64,000 nucleotides of DNA from a virus. Taxonomy: Duplodnaviria; Heunggongvirae; Uroviricota; Caudoviricetes. A model generated the notes under the pieces. That model worked only from the letters and a program-made list of their open reading frames with translations. It searched no databases and was not told the origin of the DNA. Positions 3,055 to 41,705 of this stretch are shown here, piece after piece; position 1 is the first letter of the stretch; every line of letters starts with the position of its first letter. Both the position numbers and the translations under genes were made by a program. The stretch lies in IMG/VR virus record IMGVR_UViG_3300036801_000212, positions 1 to 64,000 of that record; one strand, 5' to 3'.

Positions 3055-4137
3055 GTGAGCACCTTTAAGGTCACGATCGAGAGACTAACTGTGACACCAC
3101 ATCCGAATGCGGATCGTCTAGAGCTAGCGCAGGTAGGTCTCTACCGCGCCGTGGTTCCCAAGGGGGAGTACGAAACCGGCGATTGCGCGATCTATATCCC
3201 CGAGGCGGCGATTCTCCCCGATGACTTGATCGAAGAACTCGGCCTCACAGGAAAGCTCGCCGGCAAGGAGAAGAACCGAGTCAAGGCGGTACGTCTTCGG
3301 GGCGAGCTGAGTCAGGGGATCGTGTGTCAGCCCGCGAAGTTCTCCGACTGGGAATACGACCTCATGGAGAGCAGCGGGATCGACTTCGCACCCGAGCTCG
3401 GCATCACAAAGTGGGTCCCCGAGATTCCCACTCACATGTCCGGGAAGGTCATCCCCGCTCCTGACCTCATCCGGTGGGTAGATATCGAGAACCTCAAAAG
3501 ATACCCAGACATTTTCTCCCCGGGGGAAATGATTACAGCGAGTGAGAAGGTGCACGATTCTGCCTGTCTAACGACGTACCACGTTGACTCAGATACGCTT
3601 TATGTCACGAGCAAAGGCTATGGCGAAAAGAACCTCGCATTAGAAGAAAACGGCGCAAACATCTACTGGCGTGCCGTGGAGAAATTCGAACTCAAGAAGA
3701 ACTTACAGCTGATGGCCGTCGGGTTGGACGCAGTCTCGGTGGCGATCTTCGGTGGGGTCTACGGTCAAGGTGTGCAAGACTTGCACTACGGAAAGTCGGC
3801 TCGTCACAACGACACATTAGGTTACGTAGCTTTCGACGTTGCCTGGGTGAGTCGGGTGACGGGAAAAACTTGGATGAACCCCACAGACTTCGCTCAGGTG
3901 ATGACAGGATTCCACATTCCCACCGCCCCGATTCTCTACGAAGGTCCGTTCGACCTCGAGAAGCTCACCAAGGTTGCTTCCGGACCGACCGTCCTAGGAA
4001 ATGGTGTACACATCAGGGAAGGAATTGTCATCCGTCCACAAGAGGAAAGTCACAGTGACATCCTCGGGGGAAGAAAGATCGCGAAACTCGTCTCCGATGA
4101 GTATGTGCTGCGCAAGGATGGAACGGAGTTTGAGTAA
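3055..4137 (+). CDS. RNA ligase with N-terminal OB/tRNA-binding-like domain and C-terminal nucleotidyltransferase domain (Rnl5/DraRnl-like architecture)
   Basis: N-terminus HPNADRLELAQVG...GDCAIYIPEAAILP resembles Trbp111/PheT-type OB tRNA-binding fold; C-terminal motifs EKVHDSA (motif I, Rnl2-like KIHGTN variant), EGIVIRP (motif IV), RKIAKLVS (motif V). Confidence 0.6.
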   Translation: MSTFKVTIERLTVTPHPNADRLELAQVGLYRAVVPKGEYETGDCAIYIPEAAILPDDLIEELGLTGKLAGKEKNRVKAVRLRGELSQGIVCQPAKFSDWEYDLMESSGIDFAPELGITKWVPEIPTHMSGKVIPAPDLIRWVDIENLKRYPDIFSPGEMITASEKVHDSACLTTYHVDSDTLYVTSKGYGEKNLALEENGANIYWRAVEKFELKKNLQLMAVGLDAVSVAIFGGVYGQGVQDLHYGKSARHNDTLGYVAFDVAWVSRVTGKTWMNPTDFAQVMTGFHIPTAPILYEGPFDLEKLTKVASGPTVLGNGVHIREGIVIRPQEESHSDILGGRKIAKLVSDEYVLRKDGTEFE

Positions 4138-8830: not shown

Positions 8831-9394
8831 TTGGCTCCAGCCCACCGTCGACAGTATCCGCTAGACAACTTCAACCGAGCATCGAATCGATCTTGGCTTG
8901 TGAAGATAGGCGCAGTGGGATGTGCCTTGGGGTGTTTGGTTGTTGTAGGCGAAAGACCGAGTTCAGTGGCGGTCGCTGCTCCCCAGCGGCTGTATCCAGC
9001 TCCCGTACTTCAGGTTCCCGCGCTCATCGTTCCGAGGTTGAAGGCTCCTCTCCTTCAAGACGTGGTTGACGTTCACCCGTTGAGTTCTGTAGATCATCTG
9101 CACGCCTTTTCCTGGCACGAAGCGATCCCTTCTACGATCGGACGGCATCGTTCTCACGCATCATCTGAGGGAGCTTTTTCTAGGGATTTTTCCCGGGGCG
9201 AAGATCATCACGAGGCGGACCGCGAGAGCCACGAAGGTGATCACCATGAAAGTCACCACGAGAGCCATCACGAGAGCCATGATCACGGTGGCCATCACGG
9301 TGGTGGTCACAGTGGTGGTCACGGAAGTCACGGTGGCCATAGCGGAGGTCACGGGGGTCACGGCGGCGGAGGTGGTCATGGCCACGGTCGATGA
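8831..9394 (+). CDS. secreted/membrane-anchored histidine-rich protein
   Basis: N-terminal hydrophobic segment IGAVGCALGCLVVVG; C-terminal HE/HG-rich tract (HHESHHESHHESHDHGGHHGGGHSGGHGSHGGHSGGHGGHGGGGGHGHG); TTG start after AGGAG. Confidence 0.55.
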   Translation: MAPAHRRQYPLDNFNRASNRSWLVKIGAVGCALGCLVVVGERPSSVAVAAPQRLYPAPVLQVPALIVPRLKAPLLQDVVDVHPLSSVDHLHAFSWHEAIPSTIGRHRSHASSEGAFSRDFSRGEDHHEADRESHEGDHHESHHESHHESHDHGGHHGGGHSGGHGSHGGHSGGHGGHGGGGGHGHGR

Positions 9395-9395
9395 G

Positions 9396-9737
9396 ATGAA
9401 CCCCGATTCCTGGTACGAACTCAAGCTCTGTGCCGGGTGCGGGAAGCGCATGGAGATCGGCGCAAGTAGAGGCCGGATCGAATCTAAACACAACTATAAC
9501 AACCGCAACTTCCACAATGCCATGTGCGAAACTCTGATCCGCGTGGAAGCTCCGATCAAGCATGGAACCGTCTGGGGATACGAACGCTGCCACGAACGTC
9601 CCGGCGGTGCCTGTAGTGAATGTCGGAGACGAAACTCTGACCGCGCCAGAAAACGTCTAGACAGAGTCACCACTCGAGCACTGCAAAGACTAGCTGAAGA
9701 GTATCCCGACAAATTCACGGAACTCTTGGAAACGTGA
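9396..9737 (+). CDS. Zn-finger protein, paralog of 9977..10414
   Basis: Shares CAGCG...IES...GT.GYERC..RP.GAC..CR pattern with gene downstream of WhiB. Confidence 0.5.
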   Translation: MNPDSWYELKLCAGCGKRMEIGASRGRIESKHNYNNRNFHNAMCETLIRVEAPIKHGTVWGYERCHERPGGACSECRRRNSDRARKRLDRVTTRALQRLAEEYPDKFTELLET

Positions 9738-9976
9738 CGCATGACTGGATGTCATCAGCGCCATGCGCGACAGTCGACCCGGAGCTGTTCTTTCCTGAGG
9801 AGGGTGACTACATCAAATCCCGGGCGGCGAGACGAATCTGCGGGGCCTGTCCCTACAAAGCGCCCTGTGTGCTGATGGCAATCCGGAACGACGTCAAGTT
9901 CGGCATTTTCGGGGGATTGAATCCTCCCGGCCGGAAACGACTTGCGCAGGAATTGAACCTCAAGGTGGAGGCGTAG
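9734..9976 (+). CDS. whiB: WhiB-family transcription factor (Fe-S cluster, 4 Cys)
   Basis: C-x24-CGAC-x5-C arrangement and GIFGG (G[VI]WGG-like) turn motif; basic C-terminus. Confidence 0.8.
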   Translation: MTHDWMSSAPCATVDPELFFPEEGDYIKSRAARRICGACPYKAPCVLMAIRNDVKFGIFGGLNPPGRKRLAQELNLKVEA

Positions 9977-10414
9977 GTGCAGACCTATCATCTTCACGAC
10001 TGCGCCGGCTGTGGCACTCGAATCCAGATCAGGGAAACCCAAAAAGGTATCGAGTCTCCCGCCGCCTACCGTCACCGTACATTCCACGGTTCCGAATGTC
10101 GCGAGCTGGCACACGTCTATCCGTCGGATGCGTCAACGAAATACCGACATGGCACTCCCGGTGGATACGAGAGATGTCGAAACCGACCGGAAGGTGCATG
10201 TCCGCTGTGTCGTGATGCCAACGCTTTCCACTTCAAGCTGGAGGTGTTGAAGCAGCTGGCGAAACTTCACCCCCATGACTATGCGGAAGTTATGAAGCAG
10301 TGTTTCACAAGAAGGGAATCGGATGGCGAACATCGAAAAGCTGGAAGCTGTACTCGACCACATCAAGATGCACCCGGAAAGTCACAACCAGGAAGTCTGG
10401 GCAGAGAAAACTGA
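9977..10414 (+). CDS. Zn-finger protein, paralog of 9396..9737 (3-prime end overlaps first family-A gene)
   Basis: Same Cys pattern as 9396..9737; GTG start directly after WhiB stop. Confidence 0.5.
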   Translation: MQTYHLHDCAGCGTRIQIRETQKGIESPAAYRHRTFHGSECRELAHVYPSDASTKYRHGTPGGYERCRNRPEGACPLCRDANAFHFKLEVLKQLAKLHPHDYAEVMKQCFTRRESDGEHRKAGSCTRPHQDAPGKSQPGSLGREN

Positions 10415-10709
10415 GTGTGGTACCGCCTACTGCATGGCCGGTTGGGCTGTGGCTCTAGCCGGTTACGAGTTTTGCTGGCGCAGCGACGGCACCACAAGCA
10501 GTGTGATAACTGAACGCACCGCGACTTCGACCCACTGTGAACTCATCGAGGAGATCGCGACAGCTGTTCTAGGTCTTGACTTCCGCGACGCCGATGACCT
10601 TTTTCATTCACTCAACACCGTCGATGACCTGGAACTCATGGTGAAGAATCTCTCGAACGGAGAGCCGATCCGTGATGGCGTTCCGATGCGCATTGAAAAG
10701 GGTCTCTGA
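10323..10709 (+). CDS. tandem paralog family A, copy 1 (uncharacterised ~120-aa protein)
   Basis: Consensus N-term MAN[IVL]EK[LC]E.VL..I+.HPE.H[DN]Q..W......CGT..C.AGW and C-term DDLE[LR].VK[ND]I[SA]N shared by six consecutive genes. Confidence 0.6.
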   Translation: MANIEKLEAVLDHIKMHPESHNQEVWAEKTECGTAYCMAGWAVALAGYEFCWRSDGTTSSVITERTATSTHCELIEEIATAVLGLDFRDADDLFHSLNTVDDLELMVKNLSNGEPIRDGVPMRIEKGL

Positions 10710-11083
10710 TGGCGAACATCGAAAAGCTCGAGGCCGTCCTGGGTCAGATCAAGGCTCACCCGGAGCAGCACAATCAGCGGGAATGGGCGGAACGCAATGA
10801 GTGTGGGACTTCATATTGTCTCGCTGGCTGGGCAGTCGTTCTCGAAGGCCACGAAATCCTGTGGGACGAGGTCGCTGAAGGAGTCTACTGTGCCCTCGAC
10901 GAGAACGGAAATATTGACAGCATCAAGAGACTCGCTGGTCGCATTCTCGACTTGTCCCCGTATCAGCGAGCGCAGATATTTTACCGTTACAACACTGTCG
11001 ACGACATCGAACTGATGACGAAGAATCTCGCAAATGGAAATCCCATCCACGCTGACATTCCGGGGCGTAGGTTTACTTTCTGA
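10709..11083 (+). CDS. tandem paralog family A, copy 2
   Basis: Same consensus; TGATGG stop-start overlap with copy 1. Confidence 0.6.
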   Translation: MANIEKLEAVLGQIKAHPEQHNQREWAERNECGTSYCLAGWAVVLEGHEILWDEVAEGVYCALDENGNIDSIKRLAGRILDLSPYQRAQIFYRYNTVDDIELMTKNLANGNPIHADIPGRRFTF

Positions 11084-11463
11084 TGGCCAACGTCGAAAAG
11101 TGTGAAGAAGTCCTCCAGTTCATCAAGGACCACCCCGAGAAGCACGACCAGAGAACGTGGGGCTACAAGAGCGACTGCGGCACGACTGCATGTTTTGCCG
11201 GCTGGACTGCCGTTCTGAACGGATACGAGTTCTATTTCGGTAGGATGGTATTCGAAAGGTATTATTCCGGGGTGAAGTCATTGAAAACCGGTGTGCATAG
11301 TTCCACCTCCACCGCTGCAGCGGTGGTTCTCGAACTCACCTGCGACGAAGCAATGATGCTCTTCGATGGCGGCAACACCTTCGAAGAGCTTGAGCAGATG
11401 GTCAAAAACATCTCAAACGGTGACCCGATCGAACGCAACACCCGCCACGACGAGGAAGACTGA
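11083..11463 (+). CDS. tandem paralog family A, copy 3
   Basis: Same consensus (MANVEKCEEVLQFIKDHPEKHDQRTW...CGTTACFAGW). Confidence 0.6.
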   Translation: MANVEKCEEVLQFIKDHPEKHDQRTWGYKSDCGTTACFAGWTAVLNGYEFYFGRMVFERYYSGVKSLKTGVHSSTSTAAAVVLELTCDEAMMLFDGGNTFEELEQMVKNISNGDPIERNTRHDEED

Positions 11464-11801
11464 TGGCTAATCTAGCGAAGATCGAAGCTGTCCTGGATTA
11501 CATTCGCACCCATCCCGAGGAGCACGACCAGAACACTTTCGCCTACCGGAATGCTTGTGGCACCCAAATGTGCTTCGCGGGGACAGCTGTTCATCTTTCT
11601 GACCAGTACAAGATCGTGTGGAGTGGTCGGGAATCCGCGGGGTGTGTCGACGCGAACGGGAATCTTGAGTCCATGCCGGACGCTGCTACAGAGATTCTCG
11701 GTCTGACCGATCAGCAGTCTTTCCAGCTTTTCCACGTCGCGCGGAACCTCGACGACCTTGAGCGCGTGGTCAAAGACATCACCAACGAGCAGGTGGCGTG
11801 A
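11463..11801 (+). CDS. tandem paralog family A, copy 4
   Basis: Same consensus (MANLAKIEAVLDYIRTHPEEHDQ...CGTQMCFAG). Confidence 0.6.
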   Translation: MANLAKIEAVLDYIRTHPEEHDQNTFAYRNACGTQMCFAGTAVHLSDQYKIVWSGRESAGCVDANGNLESMPDAATEILGLTDQQSFQLFHVARNLDDLERVVKDITNEQVA

Positions 11802-12145
11802 TGGCCAATGTCGATCTTCTTTACAAAGTTCTGGATCACATCCGTGAAAATCAAGACCAGCACGATCAGTCCAGCTGGGCGCGGAAGACGGACTGTGGAT
11901 CTAGTTTCTGCTTCGCCGGCTGGACGGTACAGCTCAGTGACTACGAGATTGTCTGGAATCAGCGGTTTCAGCAGGAGGGAGCTGACTTCTGCACCGCCCC
12001 GGGTGGTGACTACTTTTACAGCATTGAGCACGTGGCCCAGTCGCTCCTTGGGCTCGACATCCTGCAGAAGCAAGCACTGTTCTTCACTTCACAGACCTTC
12101 GATGATGTCGAGTCTGTAGTCAAGGACATAGCGAATGAGGCCTGA
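11798..12145 (+). CDS. tandem paralog family A, copy 5
   Basis: Same consensus (MMANVDLLYKVLDHIRENQDQHDQ...CGSSFCFAGW). Confidence 0.6.
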   Translation: MMANVDLLYKVLDHIRENQDQHDQSSWARKTDCGSSFCFAGWTVQLSDYEIVWNQRFQQEGADFCTAPGGDYFYSIEHVAQSLLGLDILQKQALFFTSQTFDDVESVVKDIANEA

Positions 12146-12501
12146 TGGCTGACGTTGCGAAGTTGGAAGCGGTGTTGGACTACATCCGGATGCACCCGGA
12201 GGAGCATGACCAGGGCGATTGGGCGCGACGCACCGACTGTGGCACTACTTTGTGCTTCGCCGGGACTGCCGTAGTTCTGGCTGGGTACCAGCTCGACTGG
12301 ACTAACCACTCCGACAGGACGGGACGCTGTGTGACTTCAGCGGGTGACCCGCTCTCTTTGGCGGGGACAGCTTCTATCTCTGCCGTCGCCGCGCGGGAGC
12401 TGTGCTTGGCCCCTGAGCAGGTCGAAGCCCTCTTTTGGGCCGCTGACAGCCTCGATGACTTGGAACGTATAGTCAAAGACATCGCTAACGAGGCTGCCTA
12501 A
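12145..12501 (+). CDS. tandem paralog family A, copy 6
   Basis: Same consensus (MADVAKLEAVLDYIRMHPEEHDQ...CGTTLCFAG). Confidence 0.6.
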   Translation: MADVAKLEAVLDYIRMHPEEHDQGDWARRTDCGTTLCFAGTAVVLAGYQLDWTNHSDRTGRCVTSAGDPLSLAGTASISAVAARELCLAPEQVEALFWAADSLDDLERIVKDIANEAA

Positions 12502-12504
12502 CCG

Positions 12505-12657
12505 TGGCTCAGGATTGTCCGGTCTGCCGAGGTGGCTCTCTCCACTGGGTTAGCAGCGGCACCGACGTTTCCGATTGTCCCCATTGTGTATTGGGTATGC
12601 CAGTTGTTTATCTACGGTGGTATGAAGACGAGGAAGTGAATGGTCCAGCAAGCGCCT
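12505..12657 (+). CDS. possible small Zn-ribbon protein (CPVC...CPHC)
   Basis: GTG-initiated 50-codon ORF not in track; overlaps start of exonuclease gene by 18 nt. Confidence 0.25.
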
Positions 12658-13455
12658 AAGCGTTCAAAAGGGTGGTACGAATTACCTTCGGGGGAGAAGC
12701 TTCTCTCGGTCACGACAATAAAATCTCTTGGCATTCCCCTTGATTTGACTGGGTGGGCTGGCTGGGAAGCTGGCTGGTGCGCGATGGAAAGCCTTCCGAG
12801 GCTTGTTCGCACCCGGGGATACACGCCGCGGCGGAAGATGGCGTACTGGCTGGGCCAGGCCTCGGAGAGGAAGAAGTCCGAGGCTGGTGCATTAGGCTCC
12901 TCTATCCACAAAAAGATCGAAGCCTTCATCCTGGGGAAACCGGTCGCGGAGCCGACCGAAGAAGAGGCTCCTTTCGTGGCCGCTTTTCACAAATTCATGG
13001 AAATTGAACAACCCGCCTTTGAAGCCGTGGAACTGGTGGTAGCAAACCCTGAGGATGGTTGGGCTGGGACCGCGGATGCTTTCTTGACTTTGCCGAATAT
13101 CGGACCAGCATTACTGCTCGGGGACCACAAAACCGGGAACTCGATCCACTCCGAGTTTGCATTGCAGCTGTCGGCCTATAGGCGAGCGACGGTCGGTTGG
13201 CTGAGCGACGGGACCCAGGTCGAACCCCCGAAGACTGACGGTGCCGTGGCGATCCATTTCCGGCCCGAGAAATATCCGGACACCGGGTACCGCATCTATC
13301 CGCTGGACACATCCGATGCTGTCTACGACTGTTTTTTGACGGCGAGGAAGACCGCCTTGGAATGGGCACTTGGATTGGAGAAGACGGCGGTAGGCGAACC
13401 CTATGAGCCGGGTCAACCAGTGCTGGATGCAGAAGTTGTTGAGGAGGTGGCGTAG
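12640..13455 (+). CDS. Cas4-family PD-(D/E)xK exonuclease (RecB-like nuclease domain)
   Basis: GWYELPSG...SVTT N-terminus typical of phage Cas4-like exonucleases; catalytic-type motifs GTADAF, LGDHKTG (D/ExK), QLSAYR. Confidence 0.75.
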   Translation: MVQQAPKRSKGWYELPSGEKLLSVTTIKSLGIPLDLTGWAGWEAGWCAMESLPRLVRTRGYTPRRKMAYWLGQASERKKSEAGALGSSIHKKIEAFILGKPVAEPTEEEAPFVAAFHKFMEIEQPAFEAVELVVANPEDGWAGTADAFLTLPNIGPALLLGDHKTGNSIHSEFALQLSAYRRATVGWLSDGTQVEPPKTDGAVAIHFRPEKYPDTGYRIYPLDTSDAVYDCFLTARKTALEWALGLEKTAVGEPYEPGQPVLDAEVVEEVA

Positions 13456-14604
13456 GTGGCCGGTCGTATCTTAAGCATGCAGGCCCAGCTAAAAGAGCTG
13501 GGGCGACTACGCAGCGGTCTGTACGACGTCTCGGGGCGTAAGGGGCGCCCGGCGAGGTCGGAGACGTGGATTCTCACTTCCCATGCTCAACACTACGTCC
13601 AGGCCGCGGCTGATGCGTGGGGTGGGAGCGTAGAGAAGTGGCAGCCACAAGGTGGTGGCGCTGCGCAGTGGCGGGTTATAACTGAGCAGATCACACTGGA
13701 TGCGATTCTGCCGCCCGGCGACCCTCTCTCGCAAGCGCTCGAGCTTTGGTCCGGGGGGGGATGCAAACGGCGCTGCACGGGTGTGACGGAGATGCTGTCC
13801 GACTCGCCATGCATCTGCCAGTCGAAGTTCGGTGCTCAATTCCATGAGCAGCCGGCGGGGACTGTGTGCTCGGCCACGACACGTCTGAATGTTCTCCTGC
13901 CGGACATGCCAGACATTGGTCAGTGGATTCTCGTCACTCATTCGTGGTATGCCGCGATGGAGATCGCCGGGGCTGTAGACCTCATCAAGGCCGCGGTGGG
14001 ACATGAGGCGACGATCCCAATTCGTCTGAGAATTGAACAGCGGCAACGCAAGTCCGACGGTCAGACCAAAAAGTTCCAGGTGATCGTGGTTGAGTCGAGG
14101 GGTCTCAACACCGGTGATCTGCTGAATGGTTCCGTGGTCAAGGCGATTGAAGCTGCCGCCAAGCCGGCCATCACGGCTCCGGAACCCAAGGTCCAGATCG
14201 ACATCGACTCTCTTCATGACGCTCTCTTCGCGGTCGAATCTCTGGAGGATTGGTCGGAAGTCTGGCCGATGATCAAAGAAGCTGGGGACGCAGAACTCAC
14301 AGAGGAGGCCGAAACGATCGCCAAGGACTTTCTCGAGCGAACTACCTCAGTGGATGAGTTGAAGAGTCTCTGGAAGTTCGCGGTAACGCAGAAGTTGAAG
14401 GATGCCGCCACATCTCATGCCGGGACGTTGAAGGCTAAAAAGTCCGACGAGTCTCCGAATCAAGTGTGGTCGAAGATCATGGAGACAGTTCCGGAATCGT
14501 GGCCAACGTCGAAGGTGGAACAGGAGTTCGAAAGGTTCGCTAAGACGACAGTGCAGGAGGCCACCCGTCCGCAGATGGAGGCTTATCTGGAGACTCTCGC
14601 ATGA
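13456..14604 (+). CDS. hypothetical protein with 4-Cys cluster and acidic helical C-terminal half; possible recombination partner of the exonuclease
   Basis: GTG start immediately after exonuclease stop; CKRRC...CIC...C cluster; position suggests recombination function but no family assignable. Confidence 0.5.
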   Translation: MAGRILSMQAQLKELGRLRSGLYDVSGRKGRPARSETWILTSHAQHYVQAAADAWGGSVEKWQPQGGGAAQWRVITEQITLDAILPPGDPLSQALELWSGGGCKRRCTGVTEMLSDSPCICQSKFGAQFHEQPAGTVCSATTRLNVLLPDMPDIGQWILVTHSWYAAMEIAGAVDLIKAAVGHEATIPIRLRIEQRQRKSDGQTKKFQVIVVESRGLNTGDLLNGSVVKAIEAAAKPAITAPEPKVQIDIDSLHDALFAVESLEDWSEVWPMIKEAGDAELTEEAETIAKDFLERTTSVDELKSLWKFAVTQKLKDAATSHAGTLKAKKSDESPNQVWSKIMETVPESWPTSKVEQEFERFAKTTVQEATRPQMEAYLETLA

Positions 14605-17846: not shown

Positions 17847-19442
17847 GTGTCAGAACCAAAGTTGGAATATATTCCGATCGGCGATCTCGTGCCGCATCCG
17901 GACAATCCACGGCTGACCCTTCGTGAAGATGTGGTAGCACAACTCGCGGCCGAGATCGAACGCGTCAGGTTCGGCGCGCAACACGCGATTCTCGTACGTC
18001 CGCTCGGTGACAAGTATCAGATCGTCTCCGGCCATCACCGAGTCGAAGCTGCGTCTCGTGCTGGCGTCGACGTGGCGCCAGCGTGGGTCAACGAAGACAT
18101 GGACGACGATGAAGCGTTCATGCAGCTGGTGCTGTCCAACTCGCAAGGCGAGTTGTCGTCGCTGGAGATCGGCATGCACGCGTTGAAGGCCGTGCCGCTC
18201 GGCAAGCGTGGCCGCGGGAACCTCGGCGGAATTGCCGACTATTCCCGACGCATCGGATGGTCAGACGACTCAGTGCGTCAATGGCGTGCGGCGGCCGAGG
18301 TCGCCTCTGAAAATCCCGACACGTGTCGGGATTTTACGGACAGGGCTCGAAATCTTTTCGAGATCAGCAAGGCTCGCCGCGAGGTGTGGCACTTACTGGT
18401 GGATGCGCTGAAGTCGAAGGAGTGGACGGTCGCGCAGACGGCTGCCGCAGTCGGCAGGGTCGGCGAGTTCGCCAGCCATCTGACTAGCGACAACGCCAGC
18501 TGGTTGCCCATGGTGGACGTCATCGCCAAGCATCTCGCTCAGCCGGAGCGGTTCACGCCCACCACGGTGACCAGACTCCTCAACGCGGCGGCGCAGGTCG
18601 ACGACTGGATCAGTAGTAGTGGCACCAGCGCCGACGCCAACGCGTTCGATTCTTGGCTCACCGATAACAGTGGCGGAGATTCGTGGGACTACCGCAAGAT
18701 CATCAACTACCGCGCTGAGCTTGTGGCAGCAGCGGCCGCCAAGGCTGACGCGGAGAAGACCACTGCGAAGCTAGAGGTCCCCGACTGGCACCTCGGTTCG
18801 TGGGAAACCCACATTGACAATCTCTCTGACGGTTCGGTGTCTCTACTGCTGACCGACCCTCCATACGGGATGGACTACCAGTCCGACTACCGAGTTGACC
18901 GAACCGTTGAGCACCGACACGAGGTGCTCGAAGGTGACAGCAATCTCGCCGACGCGATGGCAACGCTGTGTGACTGTGCCGAGCGCATGCATCCCAAGCT
19001 AGCGGAAGATGCTCATCTCCTAGTGTTCTGTACGGCTCGCACCGAGCCTGTCACTCGCAACGCCCTTGAAGAGGCTGGCTACACCTTCCGCAGCTCTCTG
19101 ATCTGGGTGAAGAACAACACCGGCATGGGAGACCCGTCGACCACGTTCGCACCGAAGCATGAACGGATCATGCACTACGTCAAGGGGTCTCCAAAACTGC
19201 TGCGCCGGGAGCCCGACGTCCTTGAGGCAGACCGGATTAAGACCGATCGGCACCCGACCGAAAAACCGGTCGACCTACTGGAGCGCCTCATTGAGGCGTG
19301 CACCTCGCGCGGCCAGCGAATAGCCGACCCGTTCGCCGGCGTGGCTTCTACGTGTGTGGCAGCGAAGAGCACGGGTCGCACGTGGTGGGGTTGCGAGATC
19401 AATGAAACCTACTGGCGACACGGAGAGGAGCGACTGTCGTGA
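17847..19442 (+). CDS. ParB-like nuclease domain fused to DNA methyltransferase (N6-adenine/N4-cytosine type)
   Basis: N-terminal ParB/Srx motif ILVRPLGDKYQIVSGHHRVEAA; C-terminal MTase motifs DPPYGMDY (motif IV) and TEKPVDLLERLIEACTSRGQRIADPFAGVAST (AdoMet binding). Confidence 0.8.
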   Translation: MSEPKLEYIPIGDLVPHPDNPRLTLREDVVAQLAAEIERVRFGAQHAILVRPLGDKYQIVSGHHRVEAASRAGVDVAPAWVNEDMDDDEAFMQLVLSNSQGELSSLEIGMHALKAVPLGKRGRGNLGGIADYSRRIGWSDDSVRQWRAAAEVASENPDTCRDFTDRARNLFEISKARREVWHLLVDALKSKEWTVAQTAAAVGRVGEFASHLTSDNASWLPMVDVIAKHLAQPERFTPTTVTRLLNAAAQVDDWISSSGTSADANAFDSWLTDNSGGDSWDYRKIINYRAELVAAAAAKADAEKTTAKLEVPDWHLGSWETHIDNLSDGSVSLLLTDPPYGMDYQSDYRVDRTVEHRHEVLEGDSNLADAMATLCDCAERMHPKLAEDAHLLVFCTARTEPVTRNALEEAGYTFRSSLIWVKNNTGMGDPSTTFAPKHERIMHYVKGSPKLLRREPDVLEADRIKTDRHPTEKPVDLLERLIEACTSRGQRIADPFAGVASTCVAAKSTGRTWWGCEINETYWRHGEERLS

Positions 19443-38700: not shown

Positions 38701-38772
38701 AGAGCGGGATGGCGCAGTAGTAGCGCGTTGGGCTCATATCCCAAAGGTCGTGGGTGCGACTCCCACTCCCGC
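38701..38772 (+). tRNA. tRNA-Met (anticodon CAU; could alternatively be lysidine tRNA-Ile)
   Basis: Cloverleaf folded by hand: acceptor AGCGGGA/TCCCGCC (1:72 A-C mismatch), D-stem GCGC/GCGC, anticodon stem TTGGG/CCCAA loop CTCATAT, T-arm GTGGG-TGCGACT-CCCAC; no encoded CCA. Confidence 0.7.
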
Positions 38773-38824
38773 CACGTGTCACGCCCGGACAATGGGTTCC
38801 TCACGGTTCGCCCGTCCGGGTTAT

Positions 38825-38899
38825 CTGCTCGTGGGCCAATCTGGTTAAGCCACTGCTTTTGGGAAGCAGACAGTGGAAGTTCGAATCTTCCCGAGCAGA
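38825..38899 (+). tRNA. tRNA-Pro (anticodon UGG)
   Basis: Acceptor CTGCTCG/CGAGCAG perfect, anticodon stem CTGCT/AGCAG loop TTTGGGA, T-arm GGAAG-TTCGAAT-CTTCC; discriminator A, no encoded CCA. Confidence 0.75.
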
Positions 38900-38923
38900 C
38901 GCGATTTGAGGAGGTGAGCGCCG

Positions 38924-40408: not shown

Positions 40409-41705
40409 CCCCCGGATTTATCCGTGGGGAGGAATCGGAGTGCCGTGCCTTACTCATGTCGTGCCCTCTGGTAAAGTGGATGTCGTGAGGACGGCGTACA
40501 AGGTTCGTGCCTACCCCGACACTGAGCAGGCGACGCTGCTGCGTCGCACCTTCGGGTGTGTGCGCCTGGTATGGAACAAGACCCTCGCCGATCGGCAATG
40601 CCGCTACACCGTCGAGCAGCGCAGCACTCCGTATAAGGAGACTGACGCCGCCCTCGCTGCGTGGAAACACACCGACGAGCTGGCGTTTCTGTCCGAGGTG
40701 TCCTCGGTTCCGTTGCAGCAGACGTTGCGGCATCAGCACACCGCGTTCCAAAACTTCTTCGCCAAACGAGGCCGCTACCCGAAGTTCAAGTCCCGCAACT
40801 CGCGCCAGTCCGCGCACTACACCCGGTCGGCGTTCCGCATCAAACCCGATGGATTGTGGCTGGCTAAAACCACTGCGCCGTTGAAAGTGGCGTGGTCGTG
40901 GCCCGACATTGACATGACCGGACTCGACCCGACGATGGTCATCGTCAGCGTCGAACCCGACGGCCGCTGGTACGTCACCTTCGCCGTGGACGTTTCCGCT
41001 CCGGCTCCGCTGCCCGCCGTCGGCGAGACGGTCGGAGTCGACGTCGGGTTGAAGGACTTCGCTGTCCTGTCCACCGGGGAGCGCATCGCCAACCCACGGC
41101 ATCTAGCCAAGCGCGCCCGGAACTTGGCCCGCTACCAGCGACGCATGACCCGCTGTAAGCGTGGCTCCGCGAACCGAGCCAAGGCCAAACTGAAGGTCGC
41201 TCGGGCACACTCGAAGGTCCGCGCTGCACGAAACGACTTCCTGCACAAGACCAGCACCACATTGGTCCGCCGGTTCGATCGGGTCGGCATCGAAGATCTG
41301 AACGTATCCGGCATGGTCCGCGATCACCCGCTCGCCAAGGCGATTTCCGACGTTGGGTGGGGCGAGTTCCGGTCCATGCTCGAATACAAGGCGCAACGCG
41401 CCGGACGTCAGATGATCGCCATCGACCGCTGGTACCCGTCGAGCAAGACATGCAGTTCGTGTGGCCACCTGCTGACCTTCCTTTCCCTTGGTACGCGTCA
41501 GTGGACGTGTCCCGGATGCGGCACCCGACATGATCGGGACTTGAACGCCGCGAAGAACATCGATACGGCGGCCGGGCTGGTCGCTGCTGCCTCCGGAGGG
41601 CCGGTGAGACCTGTGCAGGCAACTGCTGGGCACGGCCCAGCGAAAGAGGAACCCCGACTCGTGAGGGTTGGAATCCCCCGCCTTTAGGCGTGGGGAGGAA
41701 GTCAA
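40409..41705 (+). mobile_element. second IS200/IS605-family tnpB-only element, ~1.3 kb
   Basis: Left-end hairpin CCCCCGGATTTATCCGTGGGG identical to first element; right-end hairpin CCCCCGCCTTTAGGCGTGGGG followed by AGGAAGTCAA. Confidence 0.65.
40485..41687 (+). CDS. tnpB: TnpB (diverged paralog of 24783..25925)
   Basis: RTAYKVRAYPDTEQATLLRRTFGCVRLVWNKTL; RuvC-like motifs; CSSCG...CPGCG Zn finger; NAAKNI. Confidence 0.85.
   Translation: MRTAYKVRAYPDTEQATLLRRTFGCVRLVWNKTLADRQCRYTVEQRSTPYKETDAALAAWKHTDELAFLSEVSSVPLQQTLRHQHTAFQNFFAKRGRYPKFKSRNSRQSAHYTRSAFRIKPDGLWLAKTTAPLKVAWSWPDIDMTGLDPTMVIVSVEPDGRWYVTFAVDVSAPAPLPAVGETVGVDVGLKDFAVLSTGERIANPRHLAKRARNLARYQRRMTRCKRGSANRAKAKLKVARAHSKVRAARNDFLHKTSTTLVRRFDRVGIEDLNVSGMVRDHPLAKAISDVGWGEFRSMLEYKAQRAGRQMIAIDRWYPSSKTCSSCGHLLTFLSLGTRQWTCPGCGTRHDRDLNAAKNIDTAAGLVAAASGGPVRPVQATAGHGPAKEEPRLVRVGIPRL

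Follow-up and report, generated by a model that had tools for sequence, protein, structure and literature searches.

Six neighbouring genes of a soil actinobacterial phage are old, diverged copies of one small acidic phage protein

Introduction

Why should a phage keep six copies of one small gene side by side, and what might their products do? The question arises from the window analysed here, a 64 kb stretch of DNA from a soil actinobacterial phage in which six neighbouring genes are old diverged copies of one small acidic phage protein. An initial annotation had described them as translationally coupled tandem paralogs, rapidly diverged, with a few shared motifs around a hypervariable middle, of the kind expected from an arms race and with no function assignable from sequence. 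Here we consider the layout of the array, the family to which it belongs, its neighbours and its recent changes, and weigh what the proteins may be.

Results

Six consecutive open reading frames of 112-128 aa, all on the + strand, make up the array at positions 10323-12501, in agreement with the initial annotation: copy 1 (10323..10709; 128 aa, pI 4.57), copy 2 (10709..11083; 124 aa, pI 5.0), copy 3 (11083..11463; 126 aa, pI 4.77), copy 4 (11463..11801; 112 aa, pI 4.63), copy 5 (11801..12145; 114 aa from the ATG at 11801, pI 4.29, or 115 aa from an alternative GTG start at 11798) and copy 6 (12145..12501; 118 aa, pI 4.40). All five junctions read TGATGGC, so that each stop codon overlaps the next start by one base, and SD-like purine-rich stretches lie 5' of the array starts. 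Both features are consistent with the translational coupling that had been proposed. The array and the downstream exonuclease gene form one operon segment; a promoter and terminator scan of the array gave no signal exceeding shuffled expectation.

The six proteins match a family HMM far past chance (E 1e-42 to 1e-50; copy 1, 3e-50) and all six match the phrog_889 HMM (E 1.5e-15 to 8.4e-28; copy 1, 7e-25; copy 3, 8e-28) over profile positions ~15-150 of 162. No further copy was found in the 64 kb window outside the array. Protein identity is 41-53% against copy 1 and 33-52% over all copy pairs, the nearest paralog of copy 2 being copy 1 (47-51%). The motifs previously described recur with small deviations, namely HNQ in copies 1 and 2 and NQDQHDQ in copy 5 within the N-terminal helix, and CMAGW in copy 1, CLAGW in copy 2 and CFAGT in copies 4 and 6 within the Cys block. 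Even at the conserved 5' ends the DNA of the copies is merely 60-74% identical, and they are therefore old duplicates. Recent tandem amplification (an "accordion") was rejected on these protein and DNA identities and on the lack of long exact repeats. Synonymous divergence between the paralogs is saturated; all six reading frames are intact and their motifs kept.

Each copy encodes a small protein, strongly acidic and with a single alpha/beta domain. The pI values of the array proteins span 4.3-5.0, with a net charge of -7 to -13 per ~120 aa, and the median pI among 203 family members was 4.55. Five of the copies were picked up in a crude ORF set of the window, where they fell at the 4th-16th percentiles of charge per residue; acidic proteins are common in actinobacteria and actinophages. 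Across 198 members, a conserved core of N3 (92%), Q23 (99%), W26 (94%), C32-G-T (C32, 98%; T34, 97%) and C37-x-A-G (C37, 100%) surrounds a variable beta-hairpin. Only two cysteines are conserved in these members, His17 and His21 are Asn or Trp in many of them, and no conserved His, Asp or Arg able to complete a catalytic site was found, there being no such column conserved at 70% or more.

An AF2 model built on copy 3 (pLDDT 93.5, pTM 0.86) predicts an N-terminal helix and a Q/W loop; the Cys-Gly-Thr-x-x-Cys motif leads from a strand into helix 2, and three C-terminal helices come after it. C37 stands directly before helix 38-45, at the N-terminus of helix 2, within the conserved T34-x-x-C37. 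The variable middle noted earlier is evident at residues ~48-74, which form the beta-hairpin of the model. Structure searches revealed neither a housekeeping fold nor any relative of the model in the PDB, PDB sequences searched with a profile yielded chance matches only (ribosomal uS4, E ~0.1), and scans of the six copies against Pfam-A, NCBIfam and PADLOC gave nothing past thresholds (best chance matches E 0.02-0.09). With no match in any of these, the earlier judgement that no function can be assigned holds. Since the model is confident and has no solved relative, solving the structure by experiment would probably establish a new fold family.

A papain-like, C39 or NlpC-P60 peptidase and a peroxiredoxin-like thiol enzyme were also considered. 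C37 has the position of a thiol-enzyme cysteine, at a helix N-terminus, but no partner residue for catalysis (His/Asn or Arg) is conserved, no peptidase or thioredoxin fold was found, and these candidates were rejected. Longer homologs carry no fusion to a known domain; they merely repeat the family domain in tandem or have extensions that lack annotation. Natural two-domain fusions were predicted as one compact unit (pTM 0.81), a compactness which suggests that the domains may pair.

phrog_889 is a very large, very common and uncharacterised actinophage and prophage family, with 17,041 cluster representatives at E<=1e-3; phrog_30739 is its N-terminal relative. With some 17,000 cluster representatives, the family is no peculiarity of this phage, and it is mostly single-copy. 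Members include Mycobacterium phage Omega gp104, LittleE gp98, Corndog gp98, Henry gp93 and Bxz1 gp13, and Gordonia phage Yvonnetastic gp90-92. These cultured-phage proteins are 28-41% identical to the array copies over their full length by tblastn and share their size, motifs and predicted fold (BFVD TM 0.64-0.78). They are annotated as hypothetical only and occur as one copy each, except in Yvonnetastic, which has three matching places; against these one to three copies, six in tandem is the largest array found here. Omega gp104 comes after a repressor and an HTH gene, near the immunity/early switch.

The family is recorded in 134 GenBank actinophage records, in IMG/VR loci and in prophage-like contexts of actinobacterial genomes, and the phages with members infect Mycobacterium, Gordonia, Rhodococcus, Streptomyces and Nocardia. 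A strict DNA pattern search of bacterial genomes yielded nine loci, all nine prophage-like, while tblastn against plasmids found no family member, megablast of the region against GenBank phages no close relative, and a literature search no description of the family. Copy number is usually one, with two to five copies in 22 of the 78 sampled phage loci and six as the extreme. Copy number thus differs among relatives (1 to 6), and the copies do not correspond one to one as strict orthologs between phages.

Upstream of the array lies a WhiB-like gene (9734..9976, + strand; PF02467, E 1.8e-17), and a WhiB gene is found near family members in 10 of 85 loci, including that of Mycobacterium phage Henry. 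A Cys-rich 145-aa ORF (9977..10414, + strand), 95% conserved in relatives and a paralog of 9237-9737 (BLASTP 36% identity, E 4e-20), shares 92 nt with the start of copy 1. On the other side, a 51-aa CxxC...CxxC mini-ORF (12504..12659, + strand), 96-100% conserved in relatives and with no significant match in family profile searches, stands between the array and the exonuclease gene (12640..13455, + strand; phrog_298, E 6e-24). The latter starts 139 nt past the array end and belongs to the recombination module directly downstream. A Gp3-like gene (13456..14604, + strand; PF18897, E 7e-38) occupies the annealing-protein slot, and the C-terminus of its product is homologous to that of an ERF protein in a relative (L003). 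The array sits in the early replication/recombination arm, "early" being read from gene position.

Elsewhere, a recombination gene was present within 2.5 kb of the family in 25 of 85 loci, 22 times downstream and three times upstream (p 1.6e-4). The downstream neighbour in those 22 loci was an exonuclease or annealing-protein gene, and the order family, exonuclease, annealing protein was seen with three exonuclease families and three annealing-protein types. The remaining 60 of 85 loci have no recombination gene nearby, and in Henry, Omega and Bxz1-like phages the family gene is not adjacent to one. Extra family copies lie directly upstream of SSB in two loci (L003 and L005).

Within-locus paralogs of the window and of 21 other multi-copy loci were 29-56% identical, none of them recent, and several paralog lineages are common to distant phages; the duplications are therefore ancient and retained. 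The "rapidly diverged" amplification of the initial annotation did not survive this comparison, and the array is a differentiated multigene family of long standing, not the product of recent amplification. The recent events seen in it are contractions. Copy 2 is present solely in the window haplotype and missing from L009-type and L010 contigs, where its deletions have two different crossover points at the junctions; it has been lost twice, by unequal crossover between conserved 5' ends. In L010, copy 5 is cut to 51 aa by a ~200 bp deletion.

Alleles differ as well. The L009 allele of copy 3 is 73-79% identical with a dS of 0.44, and is therefore imported or chimeric. In L009 and L010 the copy 6 allele shows 82% identity and has its near-invariant cysteine replaced (C32R), and the copy 1 orthologs in L009 and L010 are 90-92% identical (dN/dS 0.8-3.7). 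In natural populations, array copy number thus changes and alleles are swapped while the flanking genes stay frozen. A search of IMG/VR and JGI metagenomes for more alleles, with the Gp3-like neighbour as query, yielded one short distant locus only.

Rates of protein change were estimated from three haplotypes, whose short divergences inflate omega. Nonsynonymous and synonymous differences number 56 and 18 in the array, but 6 and 20 in the flanks (Fisher p 3.5e-6). Pooled omega of the array is ~0.9, not significantly above 1, against 0.02-0.1 for flanking genes. The exonuclease protein is 100% identical between the window and L009 (dN/dS 0.02), and the Gp3-like gene has a dN/dS of 0.06-0.19. 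Omega was 0.51 at core sites and 1.09 at non-core (variable) sites (one-sided p 0.45 versus neutrality); over the longer divergence of copy 3 the values were 0.12 for the core and 0.42 for variable sites. Copy 4 differs between the window and L009 by 12 nonsynonymous and two synonymous changes, and single pairs reach an omega of 1.6-3.7 on few substitutions. Amino-acid changes in the array accumulate near the neutral rate, far faster than in the flanks. That the proteins change faster than their neighbours agrees with the initial annotation, but an omega not different from neutrality demonstrates no arms race; relaxed constraint explains the rates equally well.

Discussion

We favour, at a probability of about 0.4, the reading that the array proteins are early accessory protein-binding antagonists of host proteins, serving host takeover or anti-defence, of which a Gam-like anti-nuclease would be the most specific version. 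Early in infection the proteins would bind host proteins stoichiometrically and so block or modulate them; all paralogs would have the scaffold in common, but each a hairpin and surface of its own, and hence a different target or target variant. In the most specific version, host end-processing nucleases (for instance AdnAB or RecBCD) or nuclease-based defences would be inhibited, and phage DNA ends and recombination intermediates would be protected, as by lambda Gam upstream of bet and exo. This version is put forward because the gene order family, exonuclease, annealing protein recurs.

Counted for antagonists of host proteins were phrog_889 membership and phage-borne occurrence only, the acidity, the confident AF2 fold with no PDB relative, the lack of a conserved catalytic His, Asp or Arg, the recombination-gene order, the place of Omega gp104 near the immunity/early switch, the fast change with copy loss and truncation, the repeated independent expansions with long retention, and the compactness of the fusions. 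Counted against them were the lack of any likeness in sequence or fold to a known inhibitor, anti-defence protein or Gam, the polar cluster N3/Q23/W26/C32/T34/C37, which resembles a ligand, metal or redox site more than a scaffold, the frequency of acidity in actinobacterial and actinophage proteins, the 60 of 85 loci with no recombination gene, an omega not different from 1, which demonstrates no positive selection, and an early expression deduced from position.

The likeness to lambda Gam and other phage anti-RecBCD functions is one of small acidic early proteins encoded directly upstream of exonuclease and annealing-protein genes: recombination genes lie downstream in 22 of the 25 family loci that have them, and the array pI is 4.3-5.0. 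Gam, however, is a single-copy, all-helical dimer, whereas phrog_889 proteins have an alpha/beta domain that bears a Cys motif and occur in one to six copies, and the two share no sequence or fold likeness. Anti-CRISPR loci, Ocr/ArdA-type DNA mimics and tandem immunity-type arrays are likewise small, often acidic, poorly conserved and accessory; anti-defence clusters also evolve fast, occupy early regions and vary in copy number between close relatives. The genes of an anti-CRISPR locus are usually unrelated to one another, whereas the array holds paralogs, and in contrast to anti-defence clusters it matched no known anti-defence fold and no Aca-type regulator was identified. Profile and structure searches gave no sequence or fold likeness to known inhibitors, anti-defence proteins, Gam, Ocr, ArdA or other solved mimics. 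In gene accordions of the poxvirus K3L type, tandem copy number shifts by unequal recombination, much as contractions are visible in the array population; accordions, though, are near-identical recent copies, whereas array copies are 33-52% identical in protein and 60-74% in DNA.

A bolder proposal, which we regard as rather doubtful, would make phrog_889 a superfamily with a new fold whose members counter host defence or inhibit host nucleases on behalf of actinophages. Each paralog would neutralise a different nuclease, defence system or allelic variant through its hairpin, with the Cys-Gly-Thr-x-x-Cys pocket as a shared element for dimerisation, metal bridging or covalent trapping.

The same pocket, formed by the TxxC motif, the second Cys five residues upstream, N3, Q23 and W26, could instead serve a Cys-dependent small-molecule, metal or redox function, which we consider unlikely. 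It would bind a ligand or metal, for instance as an immune-signal "sponge" or as a Zn or Fe-S site bridging a dimer, or carry out thiol-disulfide chemistry possibly tied to the neighbouring WhiB, and ligand or partner would differ between the paralogs. The 92-100% conservation of its six residues in 198 members and the modelled position of C37 at the helix 2 N-terminus favour such a site, as do the adjoining WhiB in 10 of 85 loci and the dimers suggested by two-domain fusions; known phage sponges are likewise small, widespread, previously unannotated proteins. However, since just two Cys are conserved and His17/His21 are often Asn or Trp, the family does not conserve a classical four-ligand metal site in a single chain. 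No thioredoxin-, peroxiredoxin- or papain-like fold was matched, the widely sampled copy 6 allele has C32R, and a shared ligand would leave the retention of six diverged copies unexplained.

Rather than antagonising host proteins, the array products might work as accessory parts of the recombination/replication machinery of the phage itself, for example as adaptors that interact with SSB, or as mediators or specificity factors that serve the exonuclease and annealing protein. The directional gene order does recur across non-homologous recombination modules, extra copies lie directly upstream of SSB in L003 and L005, and translation links the array to the exonuclease gene within a single operon. 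We nevertheless think this quite unlikely. Machinery partners should co-evolve slowly, yet array omega is ~0.9 beside exonuclease and Gp3-like proteins that are 99-100% identical, and copies were lost or truncated while the module was unchanged. The family also persists in phages far from such genes, and its association with three unrelated exonuclease families argues against a specific physical partnership.

Were the paralogs instead largely dispensable and drifting, a decaying remnant of old duplications carried inside the operon, then the non-core omega indistinguishable from 1, the double loss of copy 2, the truncation of copy 5 and C32R in one allele would all fit. Useless DNA is, however, quickly purged from phage genomes, and six intact reading frames with motifs kept despite saturated synonymous divergence, a core omega of 0.51 (for copy 3, 0.12 core and 0.42 variable), the same paralog lineages kept in distant phages and thousands of intact members make drift improbable.

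A recombination directionality factor (RDF) or excisionase-like DNA-binding protein, suggested by the BFVD match G1D2E5 of Mycobacterium phage Henry, labelled "RDF protein", and by an alpha3-turn-alpha4 segment (A..LGLT..A..LF) superficially like a helix-turn-helix, was already disfavoured and is highly improbable, as the proteins are acidic, have no HTH or Xis Pfam match and have no integrase in the array neighbourhood. The label was traced to Henry gp93, whose current GenBank record reads hypothetical, and was rejected as evidence; Omega gp120, which does bear an RDF annotation, has no relationship to the family and resembles a lipoprotein.

If the array proteins are antagonists of host nucleases or defences, a large untouched family of ~17,000 sequence clusters would be opened, with a bearing on host range, the engineering of therapeutic mycobacteriophages and recombineering tools. 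Should the new-fold inhibitor reading prove true, phrog_889 would be among the largest phage families without annotation, and array contraction and allele swaps in soil would represent ongoing adaptation to local host defences. Function aside, the array offers a clean natural case of a differentiated phage multigene family, trimmed by unequal crossover beside identical neighbours, and the locus is a tractable system for asking why phages retain several diverged copies of one small protein.

An array of six diverged paralogs

Six ORFs run back to back on the plus strand: copies 1 (10323-10709), 2 (10709-11083), 3 (11083-11463), 4 (11463-11801), 5 (11801-12145) and 6 (12145-12501), each encoding a product of 112-128 aa. 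The six-gene array proposed in the initial annotation is real: the proteins can be aligned end to end (copy 1 sharing 41-53% identity with the others; 33-52% protein identity across all pairs) and every copy matches the family HMM with E 1e-42 to 1e-50. The motifs described there were recovered with small deviations. All 5/5 junctions read TGATGGC, a one-base overlap of the stop and the next start, and are preceded within a few bases by purine-rich stretches; this arrangement fits the translational coupling that had been proposed. A signal scan revealed no promoter-like or terminator-like signals interrupting the array, and the family HMM detected no seventh copy in the 64 kb window. The best-conserved DNA among the copies is an 81-nt 5' segment, yet this reaches just 60-74% identity. 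Thus, the duplications are old.

The array proteins belong to phrog_889

Scans of the array copies against Pfam, NCBIfam and PADLOC gave no match, and 6/6 were assigned to phrog_889 (PHROGs, function unknown; E 1e-15 to 1e-28). This already catalogued family is very large and lacks curated annotation: at E<=1e-3, an exhaustive profile search returned 17,041 representatives of clusters built at 50% identity, of which 7,467 also passed E<=1e-10. By tblastn, it is present in 134 GenBank actinophage records, from phages of Mycobacterium, Gordonia, Rhodococcus, Streptomyces and Nocardia, where its members are all labelled hypothetical and nearly all single-copy; Gordonia phage Yvonnetastic was matched at three places. 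Matches in bacterial genomes were surrounded by phage-like genes and plasmids yielded none. We found no published account of phrog_889 in the literature searched. The array copies are strongly acidic (pI 4.3-5.0, charge -7 to -13); over 203 family members, pI has a median of 4.55.

Certain homologs are natural fusions carrying two family domains in one chain. Three metagenomic proteins (P0077, P0085 and P0086; 287-315 aa) form a conserved subfamily of such fusions with a GRPVSGRNP-type linker. AF2 predicted P0086 as one compact unit (pTM 0.81), which hints that family domains pair, P0086 perhaps being a fixed pseudo-dimer.

Copies come and go

Across 78 IMG/VR loci, surveyed 6 kb either side, one copy was present in 56, two in 18, three in 2, four in 1 and five in 1, making the window's six the largest array seen. 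Paralogs within one locus always shared 29-56% identity. The nearest relative lay in the same locus for 17 copies, indicating independent duplications, and in another phage for 43, indicating old paralog lineages held in common.

Contigs almost identical to the window, whose exonuclease and Gp3-like proteins match at 99-100%, carry three array haplotypes. The first is the six-copy window type. The second, typified by contig L009, lacks copy 2; its copy 3 allele (73-79% identity, dS 0.44) is divergent enough to have been imported, and its copy 6 allele (82% identity) bears C32R. The third, contig L010, also lacks copy 2, and a deletion of ~200 bp leaves its copy 5 with only 51 aa. In L009, copy 1 is followed by a gene that joins the copy 2 5' end to copy 3 at a junction visible in the sequence, and that is thus a crossover product. 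The L010 crossover point lies further upstream, within TGATGGC; at least two separate losses of copy 2 must therefore have occurred. As read from these junctions, the losses are attributable to unequal recombination between conserved gene starts. Because copies come and go, the array is accessory. Its recent events are contractions, and the array itself is old; the rapid amplification originally envisaged is thus not supported.

The family typically lies upstream of recombination modules

The genome is actinophage-like and ~120 kb long, and its non-structural arm makes up the window, which contains RNA ligases, a ParB-methyltransferase fusion, a replication initiator, methyltransferases, a transposase, two tRNAs and a clamp-loader-like ATPase. 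The two RNA ligase genes, the ParB-DNA methyltransferase fusion, the transposase gene (phrog_506, E 9e-128; within the phage arm) and the tRNAs (tRNA-Met, tRNA-Pro) account for features at 944-2044, 3055-4137, 17847-19442, 40440-41687 and 38703-38900.

A WhiB gene (9734-9976) lies 5' of the array, flanked by Cys-rich paralogs at 9237-9737 and 9977-10414 (36% identity, E 4e-20; CxxC...C...C..C) whose products have no Pfam or PHROG match. The latter ORF, between the WhiB gene and the array, runs 92 nt into the start of copy 1, read in a different frame, and its conservation in relatives is 95%. Directly after the array, a 51-aa zinc-ribbon-like ORF (12504-12659; CxxC...CxxC) overlaps the start of the exonuclease gene (12640-13455; phrog_298); it is 96-100% conserved in related contigs, and no family assignment was found for it. 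The Gp3-like gene (13456-14604) follows.

Among 85 non-redundant family loci, a recombination gene occurred within 2.5 kb in 25/85. In 22 of those loci it lay downstream of the family, and in the other 3 upstream (binomial p 1.6e-4, with loci that are not fully independent). The exonucleases represent three different families (DUF3799/PDDEXK, phrog_298 type and YqaJ); the other genes encode RecT-like, ERF or Gp3-like proteins. WhiB was nearby in 10 loci. In Mycobacterium phage Omega, the single copy (gp104) follows a repressor and an HTH gene. The family is typically placed early and upstream of the recombination module.

The 382-aa Gp3-like product has an N-terminal PF18897 domain ('Gp3-like, recombination directionality factor-like'; E 7e-38), and its gene, directly 3' of the exonuclease gene, occupies the slot of the ERF annealing protein in related phages. 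Its C-terminal ~140 aa are homologous to the ERF C-terminus of one such phage (L003, 10100-10819; 33% identity, E 3e-20), which looks like an N-terminal domain swapped on a common C-terminal module. The shared C-terminus and the ERF slot suggest that the Gp3-like domain may itself be a single-strand annealing protein.

Possible functions of the array

The array is a multigene set that is old, differentiated and translationally coupled, drawn from a phage-specific, acidic, new-fold family. We favour, with a probability of roughly 0.4, a role for these proteins as stoichiometric binders of host proteins, serving host takeover or anti-defence. In the most specific version, they would shield phage DNA ends from host nucleases, a protective role proposed by analogy with Gam; what suggests it is the directional association with non-homologous exonuclease/annealing modules, along with how small and acidic the proteins are.

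The main rival centres function on an invariant Cys/Thr/Gln/Trp/Asn cluster engaged in ligand, metal or redox chemistry. Across 198 members, N3 (92%), Q23 (99%), W26 (94%), C32 (98%) and T34 (97%) are conserved; C37, A39 and G40 (100%) top the list, and P18, G33, A79, L83, L93 and F94 are also among the most conserved positions. None of the columns conserved among these members is His, Asp or Arg, and we regard such chemistry as unlikely. An accessory part in the phage's own recombination would draw on the same neighbouring genes, found at a minority of loci, and appears somewhat less probable still.

In the comparison of the window with L009, copies 1, 4, 5 and 6 pooled show 56 nonsynonymous and 18 synonymous changes (omega ~0.9), against 6 and 20 in flanking genes (Fisher p 3.5e-6), where the exonuclease gene has omega 0.02 and the Gp3-like gene 0.06. 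Split by site, array omega comes to 0.51 where the family is conserved and 1.09 elsewhere, neither significantly above neutrality, so the data allow, but do not demonstrate, the arms race initially proposed. The array is weakly constrained outside its conserved core. Copy 3, compared across a longer divergence, gives omega of 0.12 at conserved and 0.42 at remaining sites, indicating purifying selection on the scaffold, and we consider near-neutral decay improbable. We disfavour a role as RDF or DNA-binding protein for these acidic products. The RDF label itself is inconsistently applied: it is carried by Omega gp120 (L001, 10670-11053), which is unrelated to the family and starts with a lipoprotein-like signal (MKKLITAAVAAAAIIGLSAC), and, as 'RDF protein' in UniProt/BFVD, by gp93 of Mycobacterium phage Henry (L018, 28967-29410), whose current GenBank record omits it.

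Tandem families of diversified accessory phage proteins are a kind already known. To these, the putative host-protein binders described here add a confidently predicted model without solved relatives, with a predicted conserved Cys pocket, and a six-copy array with its population-level dynamics and directional link to recombination modules.
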